Shown here: positions 21,823 through 29,197 of the stretch, one piece after another
Position numbering within the stretch: position 1 is the first letter of the stretch
Layout of the letters: the number at the start of each line of letters is the position of its first letter
DNA from: Acidobacteriota bacterium
Lineage (GTDB): Bacteria; Acidobacteriota; UBA890; WLXD01
Direction of reading: 5' to 3'
Assembly (NCBI GenBank): GCA_963666055.2
Contig: CAXWPH010000002.1
Coordinates: 128,001 to 192,000 of the forward strand
Length of the DNA: 64,000 bases
Translations under genes and position numbers: made by a program
The notes under the pieces: model-generated
What the model saw: only the letters and a program-made list of their open reading frames with translations
Databases searched by the model: none
What the model was told of the DNA's origin: nothing

Positions 21823-22030
21823 TCCTTGCTCCCGAAGTGCCGGCAGGTGCGCCGTAGATGAGTCCCAGAGACCTCATCGGCCTGCTCTCGAGCTCCTCTG
21901 AATCCGACTTCGACGAGACGGTCCGCCGGTACTGCCAGCCGGCTGTTGGGGTAGGCATCGTACAAGACCCTGTACCGGCGCAGGATGCGCACGTCCCTAC
22001 TAGGCTACTCGACTCAGGTAGACTCTCGTG

Positions 22031-22954
22031 ATGGCCGAAGATCGCAAGGAGCTCGTGGCGATCGTCGCGGCGAGGGAGGATGAGCTCGCGCCGCTGCGCG
22101 AGCGTGTGCTCGTTTCCGAGAAGATCAAAGATGGGCCCCGCTACTACCTACGGGGCACGCTGCGCGGAGTGCAGGTCGTGCTCGCGGTTACCGGCGACGG
22201 CAAGCGCAACGCCGATCTCGGAATCCGACGGTTGATCCAGATGTGCGCGCCGACGCGCGTCCTGGCTGTCGGGTTGGGAGGCGCGCTCTCGACAGACCTT
22301 GCGGTTGGCGACCTGGTGGTCTCCAGCGAAGTGATGGAGGGAGAACACACACTCGCCTGTCCGGATCTGCAGTGGCTGGAGGAAGCGTCGATTCATCTGG
22401 ATTATGACCTCGGGCGGCTGGTTACCGTCGACGAGATCTTGGCGACACCATCGAGCAAGTCGGAGTGGTACGGGCGGACATGGCGCGACCAGCCCGCTGC
22501 TGCCGACATGGAGTCCGCCTGCTTCGCCAGAGTGGCCGTAGCCTACAACCTGCCATACCTGATCGCGCGGGCTATCAGCGACGCTGCCGACGAGGTGCTA
22601 CCAGAGTTCCTCGAGGACTGCCGCGCGCAGGACGGCAGCATCGACAAGCGTCAGGTGTTTTGGAAGACGCTCTGGCGACCACGCTCGTGGGGCAACATCG
22701 TACGCTTGCGCTCGCGCATGCGGCGGTGCGCTAGCACGCTGGCCGATTTCGCCGAAGGGATTGGTTGCTGCGTTAGCCTAGCTGCGTTCCCCTCACTGGG
22801 CGCGTTGCCAGCGTCCGCCATTGACATGCCCCGAGGTGTCAAGGACACTCGGAACCCTATGCCCTCAGTGCGGTGCGCTGGTCTTGAACGCGGCGCGCCT
22901 GCCTCTTGTGCGTCGCCGTTGCCGGCGCCGATGCCGCGTTGCGAGTACGCATGA
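22031..22954 (+). CDS. Nucleoside phosphorylase/MTA-SAH nucleosidase fold protein (HpnG-like) with a suspicious C-terminal extension
   Basis: TGDGKRNA, GLGGALS..LAVGDLVV, AADMESA and RAISDAADEVLP motifs. The last about 60 aa look non-homologous. Confidence 0.75.
   Translation: MAEDRKELVAIVAAREDELAPLRERVLVSEKIKDGPRYYLRGTLRGVQVVLAVTGDGKRNADLGIRRLIQMCAPTRVLAVGLGGALSTDLAVGDLVVSSEVMEGEHTLACPDLQWLEEASIHLDYDLGRLVTVDEILATPSSKSEWYGRTWRDQPAAADMESACFARVAVAYNLPYLIARAISDAADEVLPEFLEDCRAQDGSIDKRQVFWKTLWRPRSWGNIVRLRSRMRRCASTLADFAEGIGCCVSLAAFPSLGALPASAIDMPRGVKDTRNPMPSVRCAGLERGAPASCASPLPAPMPRCEYA
22821..22849 (+). promoter_or_regulatory. Sigma70-like promoter with an overlapping palindrome, upstream of the mevalonate operon
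   Basis: TTGACA (22821-22826), a 17-bp spacer, then GACACT (22844-22849). TTGACA-N10-TGTCAA forms a palindrome. Confidence 0.5.
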
Positions 22955-23997
22955 GCAGTACCGACTCACCGGCCGCCAAGCCACCGGCCGAGCGCGACCG
23001 CAAAGCCGAGCACATCCAGCTGGCGCTCGAAGAGCGTATGCAGCACGGCAGTCGCGGCTTCGACGCTTGGCGGCTCGAGCATTGCGCCCTTCCCGAGCTC
23101 GACCTGGCCGAGGTCGACCTCAGCACCGAATTCCTCGGCAAGCAGCTGGCGGCGCCGCTCCTTATCTCCTGCATGACCGGTGGCACCGCTGACGCGGCCC
23201 GAATCAACCGCAACTTGGCCATCGGCGCCGAGCGGGCCGGTGTTGCGGTTGGCGTGGGGTCGCAGCGCAAGGCGCTGGAGGATCCTACGCTCCAAGCCAC
23301 CTTCCAGGTTCGTGAGTACGCTCCCACGGTCCCCCTGCTGGCCAATCTAGGGGCGGTGCAATTGAACTGCGGGTACGGCGTCGCCGAGTGCCGGGCGGCC
23401 GTTCATATGATCGATGCCGACGCTCTCGTGTTGCACCTGAACCCTCTGCAGGAGGCGATTCAGCCCGAGGGCGATGTCAACTTCGCCAACCTGTTGCCGA
23501 AGATCGGCGCGATTGTTGGTCAACTCGAGGTACCGGTCATCGTCAAGGAGATCGGCATGGGCATATCGCTGTCGGTGGCCGAGCGCCTCGCTGAAGCCGG
23601 CGTCCGTATCATCGACACTGCGGGGCATGGGGGCACCAACTGGGCGCGCATCGAAGCGCAGCGTGCCGACGACCTCGAGCTCGGTGCGACGTTCGCCGAG
23701 TGGGGAATTCCAACGCCCGACAGCATCCGCGCCGTCGCCAGCGTGCCGGGAGTCACCGTCATTGGCAGCGGCGGGGTCCGTACTGGAATCGACGTGGCCA
23801 AGGCGGTAGCGCTCGGCGCTGACATGGTCGGCCTGGCGTATCCGTTCCTCAAAGCGGCGCTGGAGTCAGCCGCTGCCGTCGTGGCGCGGATCGACCGTAC
23901 CTTGACGGAGCTCAGGGTGTCGATGTTCTGCGCCGGCATCCGTACAGTGGCCGATCTGCGTGCCGCAAGTCTGATCGAGCGAGCGACTCGGCGATGA
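22951..23997 (+). CDS. fni: Type 2 isopentenyl-diphosphate delta-isomerase (FMN)
   Basis: RKAEHI, APLLISCMTGG, GVGSQR, HLNPLQEAIQPEGD, GGTNW and EWGIPT motifs. Confidence 0.96.
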   Translation: MSSTDSPAAKPPAERDRKAEHIQLALEERMQHGSRGFDAWRLEHCALPELDLAEVDLSTEFLGKQLAAPLLISCMTGGTADAARINRNLAIGAERAGVAVGVGSQRKALEDPTLQATFQVREYAPTVPLLANLGAVQLNCGYGVAECRAAVHMIDADALVLHLNPLQEAIQPEGDVNFANLLPKIGAIVGQLEVPVIVKEIGMGISLSVAERLAEAGVRIIDTAGHGGTNWARIEAQRADDLELGATFAEWGIPTPDSIRAVASVPGVTVIGSGGVRTGIDVAKAVALGADMVGLAYPFLKAALESAAAVVARIDRTLTELRVSMFCAGIRTVADLRAASLIERATRR

Positions 23998-25247
23998 CTG
24001 ACGCTGCCGAGCCGGTCGACCAGGGCACCCTCGTAGACGAGATCGTAGCCGGCACCCGGCGCTTCCATCACCTGCCGTCCGAGCTCGGCGCCGCTGAGGC
24101 TGCGGCCATTCGACGACAGGCGCTCGAGCGCCTGGCCGGAGTAAATCTGACACATACCGGCAAGTACTCATTCGACGCCGCGCGCGCCGCCGACAGCCAT
24201 TGCGAGAATCTGATCGGTGTGACGCAGGTGCCGGTCGGTGTAGCAGGGCCACTACTCGTGCGGGGTGATTATATCGACGGTGAGGTCTACGTCCCTCTGG
24301 CTACGACGGAGGGAGCGCTCGTCGCCAGCATTAACCGGGGCTGTGCGGCCATCCGCGCGGCCGGCGGGGCCGCCGTGTACGTGGAGGACGTCGGCATGAC
24401 CCGGGCGCCGGTGTTTCGCTCCAGCGGGCTGGCGCAGACACGTGAGTTCCTCCGCTGGGTTACCGACAACGAGGATGAGATCCGCTCCGTGGCAGAGGGC
24501 ACGAGCCGCTTCCTGCAGCTGGTGGATATCCGCCCCTATGCTTTCGGTACCACGATCTTCCTGCGCTTCAGGTTTCGCTCGGGCGATGCCATGGGAATGA
24601 ACATGGCAACCATCGCCTGCGATCAGCTAGTGCGCGAGTTGATCGAGCCGGCGACCGGGGTACCCTGCGTTGCTCTTTCCGGAAACTACTGTACCGACAA
24701 GAAACCCGCGGCGATCAACTTCCAGGAAGGCCGCGGCAAGCGCATACACGCGCAGGTCAGACTCGACGCCGATGTGCTGGCGCGCCTGAAGACGAGCGCG
24801 GCCGAGCTGCTCGAGGTGCAGTATCGCAAGAACCTGCTGGGCTCGATTGCTGCCGGTTCGATAGGTTTCAATGCCCACGTCGCCAACGTTCTCGCGGCGG
24901 TGTTTCTCGCTACTGGACAGGATCCGGCGCATGTAGTGGAAGGGTCGATGGGAATCACCTCTATCGAGCCTGGCGACGAGGGTGGCGTGGTGGCATCGAT
25001 GTACCTGCCTGCTGTTCCGCTGGCGGCGATCGGCGGTGGTACTGCGCTCGACACACAACGCGAGGCGCTTGCTGTGCTCGGCGTTGCTGCAGAGCCGGAC
25101 CGGCCTGGTGTCGCGGTGCTGCGATTAGCCGAGATCCTCGGCGCCGCCGTCCTCGCAGGCGAGCTGTCGTTGCTGGCCGCTCTTACCTCTCAGGACCTCG
25201 CCGGCGCCCACAAGCGGCTGGGGCGGCGCGCCCGGCCCGGCAGCTAG
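23994..25247 (+). CDS. hmgA: Class I (archaeal-like, NADPH) HMG-CoA reductase
   Basis: ENLIG, PLATTEGALVASINRG, MTRAPVF, GDAMGMNM, SGNYCTDKKP, ATGQDPAHVVE and a C-terminal catalytic His (AHKRLGR). Confidence 0.96.
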   Translation: MTDAAEPVDQGTLVDEIVAGTRRFHHLPSELGAAEAAAIRRQALERLAGVNLTHTGKYSFDAARAADSHCENLIGVTQVPVGVAGPLLVRGDYIDGEVYVPLATTEGALVASINRGCAAIRAAGGAAVYVEDVGMTRAPVFRSSGLAQTREFLRWVTDNEDEIRSVAEGTSRFLQLVDIRPYAFGTTIFLRFRFRSGDAMGMNMATIACDQLVRELIEPATGVPCVALSGNYCTDKKPAAINFQEGRGKRIHAQVRLDADVLARLKTSAAELLEVQYRKNLLGSIAAGSIGFNAHVANVLAAVFLATGQDPAHVVEGSMGITSIEPGDEGGVVASMYLPAVPLAAIGGGTALDTQREALAVLGVAAEPDRPGVAVLRLAEILGAAVLAGELSLLAALTSQDLAGAHKRLGRRARPGS

Positions 25248-25258
25248 ACGGTCGCCTG

Positions 25259-26377
25259 ATGGAAGCGGCGCGGTTGCCCGAAGGGCGCTTGCTGACGCGC
25301 GTCTCGACGCCTGGAAAGCTCATCCTCATGGGCGAACATGCGGTCGTCTACGGTCGGCCGGCGCTGGTGGCGGCCACTAGCCTGCGCCTACGGGTCTACC
25401 TATACCGCGCACAGCGGGCCGGCGTGGAAGTGGAGTTGCCGGAGCTCCAGTTCCAAAACCACGTTTCTTGGCAAGAGATCTGGCGCTATGCGAGCCGAAT
25501 GCGGCAGCGGTGGGACCGCTACGACACGAGCCTGACGCCGGAGGTGTTCGCTCGCCTTCAGGACGACCGCCCCGACCGGTTGGTGCTGCTGGCACTGGGC
25601 GAGGCAATCACGGCGCTCGGTGAGGATCCCGGCGCGAAGGACCATCCGCTGAGCGCGCTGCGGCTTCGGGTGGACTCGGCGGTCCCAATGGAGGTCGGCT
25701 TTGGGAGCTCCGCCGCCACCGCCGTGGCAGTGGTAACAGCGGTTTGTGCGCTCTCTGGTAAGGCGGAGAGGTGGTCACTGATTGGGCCGATCGTGGGCGA
25801 GGTGGAGCGCCGGCAGCATGGCGCGCCGTCTGGGGTGGATGTCGCGGCCGTGTTTCACGGCGGTGTGTTGCGCGCTCGCCGCGGCGGCGAAGAGCTATTG
25901 ATCGAGCCGCTGGCGGCGCGCCCTGACACCCTGCAGCGGCTGCGGGTGTTCGACACGGGTCGCTCGGCCGAGCCGACCGGCGCGGTGGTCGCGGCAGTAC
26001 GGGCGCAACACGACCGCCACCCAGCCAGCTTCGAGGCGTCGCTGGACGCTGCCGAATCCGCAACCCGGGCCTTCCAGGACGCGGTTACCGCATCAGCTGA
26101 CCAGATCGACCTGGTGCCACCGATCCGCGATGCTCAGCGCTACCTGGAGTCTCTCGGTGTGGTGCCCGAGCCAGTATGCGACGCCGTCCGCGCTGTCGAA
26201 GCTCTGGGCGGCGCCGCCAAGATCTCCGGTTCGGGTTCGCTCGCGGGGCCAGGGGCCGGCTCTTTGTTGGTATTGTTGCCTGCTGGGATCGAGAATCTCC
26301 CAGAGCCGCTGGCGAGGCTTCCGGAGCACGAAGTGTCGCTGGGCGCGGAGGGTGTGCGCGTAGAGGTGGCGTCATGA
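25259..26377 (+). CDS. mvk: Mevalonate kinase
   Basis: PGKLILMGEHAVVYG, GHMP loop PMEVGFGSSAA, HGAPSGVD and AKISGSG. Confidence 0.92.
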   Translation: MEAARLPEGRLLTRVSTPGKLILMGEHAVVYGRPALVAATSLRLRVYLYRAQRAGVEVELPELQFQNHVSWQEIWRYASRMRQRWDRYDTSLTPEVFARLQDDRPDRLVLLALGEAITALGEDPGAKDHPLSALRLRVDSAVPMEVGFGSSAATAVAVVTAVCALSGKAERWSLIGPIVGEVERRQHGAPSGVDVAAVFHGGVLRARRGGEELLIEPLAARPDTLQRLRVFDTGRSAEPTGAVVAAVRAQHDRHPASFEASLDAAESATRAFQDAVTASADQIDLVPPIRDAQRYLESLGVVPEPVCDAVRAVEALGGAAKISGSGSLAGPGAGSLLVLLPAGIENLPEPLARLPEHEVSLGAEGVRVEVAS

Positions 26378-27399
26378 GCCGCAGCGCCACCGTCGAAGCA
26401 CCCTCCAATATCGCGTTTGTGAAGTACTGGGGTGCCGCTGACCTGGAGAAGGCCATCCCGCTCAACGCTTCGATCTCGATGTCGTTGCGGGCGTGCGTCA
26501 CACGGACGAGCGTCGAGACGCTCGCGGCCGGCGCCGACGACCAGATCTGGATGCGCGTCGACGGCCAATGGCGTCGCGCCGAAGGAGCGTTCCGGCATCG
26601 CGCAGCGGCACATCTGGAAGGTCTGCGGCGTTGGGCCAAAGTCGACGTGGGCTTTCGGGTCGCTACCGAGAACAGCTTTCCTGCCGCCGCCGGTATCGCC
26701 TCGTCGGCTTCCGGCTTCGCCGCCCTCACCCTGGCGGTGCTGGCGGCGCTCGAGCGGGAGCCGGCAGGTGATGAGCTATCGAATTTGGCGCGGTTGTCTG
26801 GCTCAGGCTCCGCGTCGCGGTCGGTTTTCGGCGGCTACGTGCAGTGGCCGCACGGCGACGAGGCAGACCCGTGGCGCGCCGCACCGCTGGCGACGGCCTC
26901 GCATTGGGACCTGCGCGACGTAATCGCGATTGTGCAAACCGGTCCCAAGGCGGTGTCGTCTCTCGAGGGGCACGCCCGGGCCCCCACCAGCCCCCATTTC
27001 GCACGCCGGCAGGAGCTCATCCCGTCGCGTCTTCAACGGGTGCGCGACGCCATCGAGGCGCGCGACCTGGACCAACTCGGTCCGGTCGTCGAGGAAGACG
27101 CGATTGAGCTCCACCTGGTAGCGATGTCCTCGCAGCCTCCGATCTTCTACTGGCAGCCGGCGACGCTTCGCGTGCTGCACCACGTTCGCACCCTGCGGAG
27201 CGGTGGAACGTCGGCGTGGGCAACAATGGACGCCGGAGCTAACGTGCATGTGATTTGCTCCGCCGACGACGAGGCAGACGTCGCCGCCGGGTTGGAAGCG
27301 CTCGATGGTGTCCAGAGTGTGATCCGCGACGGCGTGGGCTCGGGACCACGGACCCTGCCGGTATCGCTGCTCGATGCTCTGGATCGAGCGCAGCCATGA
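26374..27399 (+). CDS. mvaD: MVD-family decarboxylase (probably phosphomevalonate decarboxylase)
   Basis: NIAFVKYWG, NSFPAAAGIASSASGFAAL, GSGSASRS and TMDAGANVHVI motifs. ATGA overlap with mvk. Confidence 0.93.
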   Translation: MSRSATVEAPSNIAFVKYWGAADLEKAIPLNASISMSLRACVTRTSVETLAAGADDQIWMRVDGQWRRAEGAFRHRAAAHLEGLRRWAKVDVGFRVATENSFPAAAGIASSASGFAALTLAVLAALEREPAGDELSNLARLSGSGSASRSVFGGYVQWPHGDEADPWRAAPLATASHWDLRDVIAIVQTGPKAVSSLEGHARAPTSPHFARRQELIPSRLQRVRDAIEARDLDQLGPVVEEDAIELHLVAMSSQPPIFYWQPATLRVLHHVRTLRSGGTSAWATMDAGANVHVICSADDEADVAAGLEALDGVQSVIRDGVGSGPRTLPVSLLDALDRAQP

Positions 27400-28196
27400 A
27401 CGACCTGGTGGTAGTCAAGCTCGGTGGCAGCTTGATCACGAACAAGCGCCGCCATCGAACGGTGAGGCGGGCTGAGCTTTCGCGACTCGCCGGCGAGATC
27501 GCGGCGCTCACCCGCCGCTTTGGATTCCCGATGCTGTTAGGGCACGGTAGTGGGTCCTTTGGGCACGTGGCGGCAGCGGAGTCAGGCGTTCACGACGGGA
27601 TGGCCGGGCGTCGTGCGCGGGTCGGTGTGTCGCAGACGCAGGCTGCAGCTGCAGAGCTGCACGCGATCGTGATGAGCGCTCTGCGCGATGCCGGTGTGGC
27701 TGCCTACTCGGTGGCGCCGTCGAGCGCTATTGTCGCCAGAGGCCCCGGTCTTCGGCCGAGCGTGCACCTGGAGCCGGTGCTCCGAGCGCTCGACAGTGGG
27801 CTGCTACCCGTTACGTATGGCGACATCGTCATGGACCGGCAACGTGGCTGCTCGATTTGCTCGACCGAAATGGCGCTGCTGGCGTTCGTTCGCTCGCTAC
27901 GCTCGTCAAATCGGCGTGTCTCCGACGCCATCTGGCTCGGAGACACCGACGGCATTCTGGATGCGGCTGGGGTGAGCGTTACTCGCGTCCGCTTGCGAGA
28001 CGCCAGGCGCGTCCGCCGCCTGGTGAGTGGCGCGGCCGCGACCGACGTGACCGGCGGCATGCGCCATCGGTTCGAGGCGGCGTTGGCGCTGGCCCGCATT
28101 GGCGTACGGTCCTATCTGCTCGATGGCCGTCGACCGGGCATCCTGCGACGTGCGCTGCGGGGCACCGCGGTGCCGGGGACAATCGTCGAGCGTTGA
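27396..28196 (+). CDS. ipk: Isopentenyl phosphate kinase
   Basis: VVKLGGSLITNK, HGSGSFGH (IPK signature His), PVTYGD, ICSTE and DVTGGM motifs. Confidence 0.92.
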   Translation: MNDLVVVKLGGSLITNKRRHRTVRRAELSRLAGEIAALTRRFGFPMLLGHGSGSFGHVAAAESGVHDGMAGRRARVGVSQTQAAAAELHAIVMSALRDAGVAAYSVAPSSAIVARGPGLRPSVHLEPVLRALDSGLLPVTYGDIVMDRQRGCSICSTEMALLAFVRSLRSSNRRVSDAIWLGDTDGILDAAGVSVTRVRLRDARRVRRLVSGAAATDVTGGMRHRFEAALALARIGVRSYLLDGRRPGILRRALRGTAVPGTIVER

Positions 28197-28276
28197 CCGG
28201 CGGCGGCTTCGTTGCCTGGGCCGCGCCCCCGCCAGGGTGGATAATGGACCTCGGCCAGCCAAAGCCAGGCGCACGC

Positions 28277-29197
28277 ATGGACCGCATCGAAGACCTTCTC
28301 GAGAAGACCAGCCGCACGTTCGCGCTATCGATCCCGTTGCTGCCGGAGCCGACCCGCCGCGAGCTTGGCATCGCCTACCTGCTGTTCCGCATTGCGGACA
28401 CCTTCGAGGACGCGTCGCAATGGGACCGACAGCAGCGCATCGATGCCCTCGAAGAGTTCATGAGCCTGGTTCGAGATCCGGACGAGCAGCGCGCCGCCGA
28501 GCTGGGACGTAGGTGGGCCGCCTCCGTACCGATTGACCATCCCGGCTATCTCGAGCTACTCGGCGAATCCGCAACCGTGATCCGGGAATACCAGCGTCTG
28601 CGACCTGACGCACGGGAGATCATCCGTGAGCACACGTTGCGGACCGTTGCTGGCATGTCCGGATTCGTCAAGCGCTCTGTCGATGGCGTGCTCAAGCTCG
28701 AGTCTCTCGCTGACTTGCGCGAGTACTGTTACGTGGTTGCCGGTATCGTCGGTGAGCTCAGCACTGATCTGTTCCTCCTCGAGCGCCCCCAGCTGGCGTC
28801 GTCGATCGAGTTCTTGCGACAGCGCGCTGCGCGGTTTGGCGAGGCGCTGCAACTGGTCAACATCCTCAAGGATGCCGCCACCGACCGGCGTGAGGGTCGG
28901 CGTTACCTGCCTGCAGCGTTGAAGCGCAAGGAGATCTTCCGGTTGGCCCGCGAAGACCTCCGAGTAGCAGCCCATTACACCAACGCACTGCAGGCGGCGG
29001 GTGCGCCGCGCGGCATCGTCGCGTTCTGCGCGCTACCTACACGGCTGGCCGTCGTCGCCCTCGACATCGTCGAGCGGTGCGGGCCCGGCGCGAAGATCTC
29101 ACGCCAAGACGTTGCCGACATCGTCGAGGCCCTGAACCTAGATCTCGACGTCGGTGCTCCCGCGGTGGCGATTCCAGCAACCGCGAAACCGACGTGA
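28277..29197 (+). CDS. Squalene/phytoene synthase family, single-enzyme squalene synthase type
   Basis: TSRTFALSI, YLLFRIADTFED, YCYVVAGIVG and LQLVNILKD...D..EGR.YLP motifs. Confidence 0.9.
   Translation: MDRIEDLLEKTSRTFALSIPLLPEPTRRELGIAYLLFRIADTFEDASQWDRQQRIDALEEFMSLVRDPDEQRAAELGRRWAASVPIDHPGYLELLGESATVIREYQRLRPDAREIIREHTLRTVAGMSGFVKRSVDGVLKLESLADLREYCYVVAGIVGELSTDLFLLERPQLASSIEFLRQRAARFGEALQLVNILKDAATDRREGRRYLPAALKRKEIFRLAREDLRVAAHYTNALQAAGAPRGIVAFCALPTRLAVVALDIVERCGPGAKISRQDVADIVEALNLDLDVGAPAVAIPATAKPT

Follow-up and report, generated by a model that had tools for sequence, protein, structure and literature searches.

Can a bacterial gene block that encodes a mevalonate kinase (MVK), a mevalonate-type decarboxylase and an isopentenyl phosphate kinase (IPK) supply isopentenyl diphosphate (IPP) in a genome with no recognisable phosphomevalonate kinase (PMK)? 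The question arises from the genome G000, a 5.73-Mb assembly in 15 contigs (95.7% complete, 2.27% contaminated), of which we analysed a stretch of 64,000 nucleotides, G000:C2:128001-192000, referred to here as the window. The nearest named loci are Acidobacteriota bacterium entries, with decarboxylases 81-84% identical to the window enzyme, and from these G000 is likely a member of the Acidobacteriota. An earlier note on this DNA described five tightly spaced genes with three ATGA overlaps at positions 22951-28196, and the coordinates of the open reading frames (ORFs) and the family scores confirmed that description. The ATGA stop-start overlaps lie at 23994, 26374 and 27396, and 11 nt separate hmgA from mvk. 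The genes are as follows, with model scores set against their cut-offs.

22951..23997, + strand: fni, type 2 isopentenyl-diphosphate isomerase (TIGR02151, 396.5 against 281.3)
23994..25247, + strand: hmgA, class I (NADPH) HMG-CoA reductase (TIGR00533, 445.3 against 441.8; class II model just 28.5)
25259..26377, + strand: mvk, mevalonate kinase, sole GHMP kinase in the block (TIGR00549, 136.4, below the cut-off of 163.05, yet the best family)
26374..27399, + strand: GHMP decarboxylase, predicted phosphomevalonate decarboxylase, with Ala21, His200, Arg212 and catalytic Asp286 (TIGR01240, 224.9 against 171.35)
27396..28196, + strand: ipk, isopentenyl phosphate kinase (NF040647, 149.1 against 120)

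The note had also remarked that the block holds only one GHMP kinase and that an IPK with the SFGH signature comes directly after the decarboxylase. Both remarks held; the IPK motif reads GSGSFGH and includes His57. HMG-CoA synthase is encoded on another contig (G000:C11:85208-86296; over the cut-off for PF01154, 249 of 360 for TIGR01835), so that the genome encodes the synthase, the reductase, MVK and an IPK with its catalytic His, and no PMK was found in it. On the sequence evidence we consider it very probable that G000 makes IPP and dimethylallyl diphosphate (DMAPP) by the mevalonate route of the haloarchaeal and Chloroflexota type, in which a phosphomevalonate decarboxylase (PMD, also abbreviated MPD) works with IPK. 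HmgA would reduce HMG-CoA to mevalonate, and Mvk would phosphorylate mevalonate once, giving mevalonate 5-phosphate. The predicted PMD would then catalyse the ATP-dependent decarboxylation of mevalonate 5-phosphate to isopentenyl phosphate, which Ipk would convert to IPP and Fni, in turn, to DMAPP. The genes are presumed to be co-transcribed.

Active site and phylogeny of the decarboxylase

Lys21 is listed among the diphosphate-binding residues of diphosphomevalonate decarboxylases (MDDs) in excerpts of Dellas 2013 (PMC3857490). Zhu 2024, as excerpted, describes the PMD motif as loss of this Lys with retention of a His, and states that the Chloroflexota enzyme may have both activities. The window enzyme lacks the MDD Lys and has the PMD His and the catalytic Asp (Ala21, His200, Asp286). 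Throughout its clade, position 21 is non-Lys, position 200 is His and Asp286 is kept (87/87 for each), in contrast to the Lys and Met found at the first two positions in 15/15 PMK-linked enzymes; for the residue count, 4 of 80 loci without a clean ORF and 1 partial locus were dropped. Lys21 together with a PMK partner, the mark of a classical MDD, was found neither in the window enzyme nor in G000. The earlier note had proposed that this mvaD-like gene encodes a phosphomevalonate decarboxylase, and the proposal is supported: Lys21 is absent, His200 is present, IPK co-occurs and PMK is excluded in relatives, all of which point to a probable PMD.

Arg212 occurs in 87/87 clade sequences, 54/54 Anaerolinea-like and 9/9 haloarchaeal sequences, and is replaced by Trp in 15/15 PMK-linked enzymes. 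It is thus a candidate extra specificity marker, separating all the MPD-type sets from the PMK-linked MDDs. The Arg193-equivalent (position 197) was rejected as a marker; it is Arg in 25/87 clade sequences and in just 5/15 PMK-linked enzymes.

We compared the enzyme with known structures. Its best match in the Protein Data Bank (PDB) was the mevalonate 5-phosphate decarboxylase of Anaerolinea thermophila (215.8 bits, vs 156.3 for the E. faecalis MDD), and a structural model (pLDDT 95.2) had 6N0Z, 6N0Y and 6N0X, all of this Anaerolinea PMD, as its top fold matches (TM 0.89-0.94). PDB entry 6N0Z is the N20K H194M mutant of the Anaerolinea enzyme, and Ala21 and His200 of the window enzyme align with N20 and H194. 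According to excerpts of Aoki 2022, mutagenesis by Thomas et al. shifted PMD specificity to that of DMD. The two enzymes are ~40% identical and have in common the lack of Lys at 21, His200, Arg212, Arg219, His292 and Ser144/Ser196; they differ in that the window enzyme has Ala21 for Asn and Ala27 for Arg and falls in a separate clade. In the ESM Atlas only decarboxylase clusters were returned, the commonest from Chloroflexota, Acidobacteriota and Myxococcota.

Decarboxylase trees had 35 rows, in which the Roseiflexus, Haloferax and Anaerolinea enzymes were represented by relatives only and distant relatives were under-sampled. The Anaerolinea-like rows are motif-selected metagenome relatives (54/120 motif loci full length), and the two that were checked against 6N0X scored 378 and 405 bits. 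For the haloarchaea, the rows are relatives of a gene carried on a Halococcus plasmid (440.8 of 475 for NF040704), possibly a paralogous set. The clade of the window decarboxylase had a support of 100/100, the PMK-linked enzymes grouped without it (98/93), and it was not nested within the Anaerolinea-like sequences. By these trees the window enzyme belongs to a distinct clade of uncertain position, outside the sampled MDDs and not inside a characterised PMD clade. The phylogeny suggested in the note thus gave no assignment to a characterised PMD clade. The Halococcus gene (L098:4995-5954) is a stand-alone PMD-like gene adjoining a transposase, and is annotated as diphosphomevalonate decarboxylase. 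Two long-branch decarboxylases with the Anaerolinea motif (L197, L250) lie on metagenome contigs directly 3' of a divergent MVK-like gene.

PMK and MEP genes in G000 and its relatives

A genome search for PMK, which the earlier note had suggested, found none in the 95.7%-complete assembly. We built a profile from 4 reference PMKs (leave-one-out recovery 281-470 bits); run in six frames, it matched only MVK in G000, at 37.8 bits. A PMK query from the class of a second genome, G029, also matched only MVK (33.2 bits), and the animal-type PMK family PF04275 gave 0 matches in G000. Matches to PF00288 fell at six places. Five are MVK, the decarboxylase, an HddA-like sugar kinase, and ThrB (324.8 against 194) and GalK (235.3 against 226.65), the last two over their NCBIfam cut-offs; the sixth match is below threshold and lies in an unrelated ORF. 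IspE was not among these GHMP matches. The methylerythritol phosphate (MEP) pathway enzymes DXR, IspG and IspH were not found in G000 either, each of them scoring over the cut-off in 9/14 control genomes. Since G000 has no match to PMK, DXR, IspE, IspG or IspH, a salvage-only role for IPK is unlikely.

The same division is seen between families. In the family of G000, DXR is present in 0/11 genomes and the decarboxylase in 9/11, the two misses being 71% and 77% complete, vs 13/15 and 0/15, respectively, in the sister family. In the 11 genomes of the family, the GHMP matches inspected were only ThrB, GalK, HddA-like, MVK and decarboxylase, with no PMK among them, and G000 itself has a single decarboxylase homologue. 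Because of the missing PMK and MEP matches and the split of DXR and decarboxylase between the two families, the operon is likely the family's source of C5 units, with IPK more than a salvage enzyme, and the block would be the only such source in G000.

We examined the 80 best GTDB loci for the decarboxylase, many of them cut by contig ends. Its neighbours include ipk (78/80), mvk (78/80), hmgA (69), fni (62) and the squalene-synthase-like gene (56), and the two loci that lack a neighbouring ipk belong to genomes that carry it at another place. Related loci repeat this gene order, so the grouping is not due to chance. These 80 loci are mostly from Acidobacteriota, with several from Rhodothermota, two from Gemmatimonadota and one from Schekmanbacteria.

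G000's own class is small (26 genomes) and distinct from that of G029, which the named loci lead us to infer is Thermoanaerobaculia. In the latter we sampled 121 genomes with a completeness of at least 90%, counting G044, a genome flagged as unpublished, on which alone no claim rests. A decarboxylase is present in 40 of them; in 29 it belongs to the clade of the window enzyme and in 11 to a distant type. IPK occurs in exactly the 29 clade genomes and in none of the 11 distant-type genomes. The PMK query matched in 9/29 clade genomes at no more than 46.8 bits, with all seven matches whose position was checked falling at MVK, and in 10/11 distant-type genomes at 140-768 bits; in the eleventh, the PMK is Firmicutes-like (254 bits). 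The distant-type enzymes have Lys/Met and lie beside a PMK-like gene. All 13 DXR-negative genomes of this class have a decarboxylase, 10 of the clade and 3 classical.

A classical set of Lys/Met decarboxylase and PMK-like kinase is seen in L134-L144 (the 11 genomes of G029's class), L181 and L182. The set in L136 is Firmicutes-like, and L138 has a fused class II-like HMGR-MVK ORF of 760 aa.

Contrary evidence and competing explanations

Several observations weigh against a PMD and against the proposed route. Arg at the Ile27 position is an MPD marker in Table 4 of Dellas 2013 (PMC3857490, in excerpt); the window enzyme has Ala27, and Arg is found there in 0/87 clade, 51/54 Anaerolinea-like and 3/9 haloarchaeal sequences. 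Ser144 and Ser196 are MDD-like, as they are in 54/54 Anaerolinea-like sequences, and with Ala27 they place the enzyme outside the filter of that table (Arg at Ile27; Ala and Thr at Ser139 and Ser192). The enzyme reaches only 151.9 of 475 for NF040704, the haloarchaeal MvaD model, while passing the MDD model TIGR01240. An Anaerolinea-like protein likewise fails NF040704 (199) and passes TIGR01240 (260.3), so the TIGR01240 pass does not discriminate. His200 alone was dropped as a diagnostic, since Bernardetia has Lys with His. The best PDB match was kept as weak support only, since a Lys/Met PMK-linked control also matches Anaerolinea PMD best (231 vs 223.5 bits), though the margin for the window enzyme is ~60 bits. 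The clade joins the Anaerolinea-like sequences at 91/81, or 75 after removal of two long rows, and approximately unbiased (AU) tests with these rows left out did not reject the alternative pairings (p 0.126, 0.348). The TIGR01220 search found nothing real in G000 and is a weak one, its cut-off being passed in 0/14 control genomes. DXR is kept in 19/29 clade genomes of G029's class, where the MEP and IPK-type mevalonate routes may coexist; the latter is therefore not always the sole route. The match of residues to gene context reflects few independent origins, and with kin that are non-independent it counts as a single strong pattern, not as 40 tests. Finally, the decarboxylase may retain some activity on the diphosphate; such dual specificity would leave the route unchanged in a genome without a PMK.

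The best-placed alternative, which we nevertheless consider improbable, is a classical route with a hidden second kinase. In this case Mvk acting twice, the IPK-fold protein or an unrelated kinase would phosphorylate mevalonate 5-phosphate, and the decarboxylase would be an MDD. The TIGR01240 pass, the MDD-like Ser144, Ser146 and Ser196 and the lack of Arg at the Ile27 position all fit it. Mvk is also divergent, scoring below its family cut-off, although 11/11 of its PDB matches are mevalonate kinases and it scores 136.4 for TIGR00549 vs 32.1 and 25.3 for PMK models (78.4 bits for an MVK profile vs 37.8 for the PMK profile). The IPK has STE where archaeal structures have SGD, and Arg225 for the partly conserved Lys221. 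However, the diphosphate-binding Lys21 of MDDs is absent in 87/87 clade enzymes, the STE motif also occurs in IPKs encoded next to Anaerolinea-like decarboxylases and next to an AcnX/UbiD set, and all 11 invariant residues of Table 2 of Dellas 2013, mapped by spacing, are kept (K8, G10, G11, K17, G51, H57, P138, G142, D217, T219, G220). The catalytic His57 is found in 82/82 relatives, and the top 7/8 PDB matches are of IPK type, the 8th being FomA. The protein is predicted to be an active IPK.

A PMK could instead lie in the unassembled part of the genome, with IPK only salvaging isopentenyl phosphate as in plants. The assembly is indeed only 95.7% complete and in 15 contigs, and plants and Sulfolobus have IPK alongside PMK and MDD (Dellas 2013, PMC3857490, in excerpt). 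We rate this as very improbable: none of the GHMP matches inspected in the 11 genomes of the family was a PMK, a strong PMK match was lacking in 29/29 clade genomes of G029's class, and ipk is stop-start coupled to the decarboxylase.

Equally slight is the probability of an archaeal route to isopentenyl phosphate through an AcnX phosphomevalonate dehydratase and a UbiD-type decarboxylase, with the GHMP decarboxylase secondary. G000 does have two AcnX large and small subunit pairs and one UbiD, but these are unlinked to the operon and the sole UbiD passes a menaquinone decarboxylase model (515.9 against 495.9). The IPK-linked AcnX and UbiD of another acidobacterial genome, G266, match G000 only at 35% and at 28% over 153 aa; for NF003046, the small subunit of G266 scores 173, those of G000 just 73 and 59. 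The least probable alternative is a Thermoplasma-type route with the GHMP protein as mevalonate 3-kinase (M3K) or bisphosphate decarboxylase, which shares the superfamily and likewise ends in IPK, but which is opposed by Asp286 being kept in 87/87 (absent in M3K, per excerpts of Aoki 2022), by a score of only 35.1 of 560 for NF040847 and no match for NF040848, by the single decarboxylase homologue and by the presence of MVK.

Flanking genes, known systems and significance

The block extends beyond the five genes that the earlier note had taken as its span; these stand, and with one further gene on either side the extent is at least seven genes, 22028-29197.

22028..22954, + strand: hpnG-like nucleoside phosphorylase, first gene of the block (PF01048, 86.9 bits; TIGR03468 HpnG, 94.5, below the cut-off of 187.1)
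28277..29197, + strand: squalene/phytoene-synthase family gene (PF00494, 123.5 bits; best model squalene synthase TIGR01559, 93.2, below the cut-off of 286.75)

A fourth ATGA at 22951 overlaps the stop of the hpnG-like ORF with the fni start, and the squalene-synthase-like gene, which would make squalene, begins 80 nt past ipk. The hpnG-like gene is in the same position in G004-G007, and its long C-terminal extension is conserved across the genus. In three genomes (G005, G008 and G308; loci L179, L180 and L308), shc and hpnH lie upstream of hpnG-fni, and because of this arrangement the block likely began as a hopanoid and mevalonate cassette, with the hpnG-like gene a remnant. No shc or hpnH match was found in G000, and shc occurs in 0/5 genomes of its genus, so hopanoid synthesis in G000 is unsupported. 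The squalene-synthase-like gene is present although G000 and its genus lack squalene-hopene cyclase. Recent transfer into G000 is likewise unsupported, as GC content at third codon positions (GC3) is 0.75-0.79 in the block, close to that of five window genes (0.76-0.79), and the block is spread across the family. Within the class of the Longimonas locus the clade is rare (1/81 genomes), and IPK occurs in 23/251 sampled genomes of G000's own phylum; this patchy spread resembles, we infer, that of a transferred cassette.

The earlier note had compared the block with Haloferax and Roseiflexus. The likeness holds for the route, as Roseiflexus castenholzii MPD with IPK and the haloarchaeal PMD would share its chemistry and gene set (MVK, an MDD homologue without Lys21, IPK, no PMK), and His200 and Arg212 are common to the window enzyme and 9/9 haloarchaeal homologues. 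It does not extend to the protein family, given the NF040704 score and an identity of ~31% to haloarchaeal homologues vs 41% to Anaerolinea-like relatives. The Arg83/Ala201/Thr255 filter of Roseiflexus MPD, whose own sequence is outside the alignments, is also missing from the window enzyme. The five genes form one block here, in contrast to the Anaerolinea-like loci, many of them short, where ipk was within the fetched flanks in only 2/54. With the classical operon (mvk-mvaD-pmk-fni in Staphylococcus, Enterococcus and Streptomyces, and also in G029's class) the block shares an operon-like layout, a type 2 isomerase and the TIGR01240 pass; it differs in having IPK instead of PMK, in the replacement of Lys21/Met200 and in lying outside the PMK-linked clade.

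In excerpts of Sinninghe Damste et al. 2017 (PMC5462960), the subdivision 22 acidobacterial metagenome-assembled genome (MAG) Mor1 has no MEP genes, and its hopanoid cluster figure shows type 2 isomerase, HMGR, mvK and mvD. These mevalonate genes are likely the same cassette as the window block. G000, unlike the Mor1 cluster, is without shc and hpnH. The excerpts name the Mor1 gene a diphosphate decarboxylase, list no IPK and do not infer an alternative route.

Another acidobacterial family has consecutive UbiD-like, AcnX large, AcnX small and IPK genes (L305:4768-8413 in G266:C9; also G031 and G252). The G266 small subunit passes NF003046 (173 against 163), fni and mvk are close by, and G031 has no GHMP decarboxylase match. 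The gene content of this set suggests an archaeal (PMDh/AMPD) mevalonate route in Acidobacteriota. The split AcnX pairs of G000 (C15:153819-155479 and C1:55219-56923) resemble cis-3-hydroxy-L-proline dehydratase.

Chloroflexota has been called the only bacterial phylum with the MPD and IPK route (Hoshino and Gaucher 2018), and a 2026 review names only Chloroflexota for it. We found no description of the PMD and IPK route in Acidobacteriota or Thermoanaerobaculia in the literature searched, which did not include subscription papers. The suggestion of the earlier note that the route extends beyond haloarchaea and Chloroflexota thus gains likely new host lineages, mostly Acidobacteriota. The pathway is a known one, demonstrated experimentally in haloarchaea and Chloroflexota, with likely new hosts, a distinct enzyme clade and no new chemistry. 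It is possible, though on balance doubtful, that the clade is a third independent PMD lineage with its own filter (Ala21, Ala27, His200, Arg212), carried on a mobile mevalonate-squalene-hopanoid cassette in at least four phyla; that it has replaced MEP in a whole acidobacterial family; and that Acidobacteriota run four routes (MEP, classical, haloarchaea-type and archaeal mevalonate).

If the proposed route is correct, it would be common in soil and marine Acidobacteriota and reach Rhodothermota, Gemmatimonadota and Schekmanbacteria. The label diphosphomevalonate decarboxylase would then be wrong for many proteins. It would provide a ready-made bacterial operon for engineering of the PMD-IPK bypass. 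It would also bear on how PMD and MDD evolved from each other, and on the pathway that feeds hopanoid biomarkers in these bacteria.

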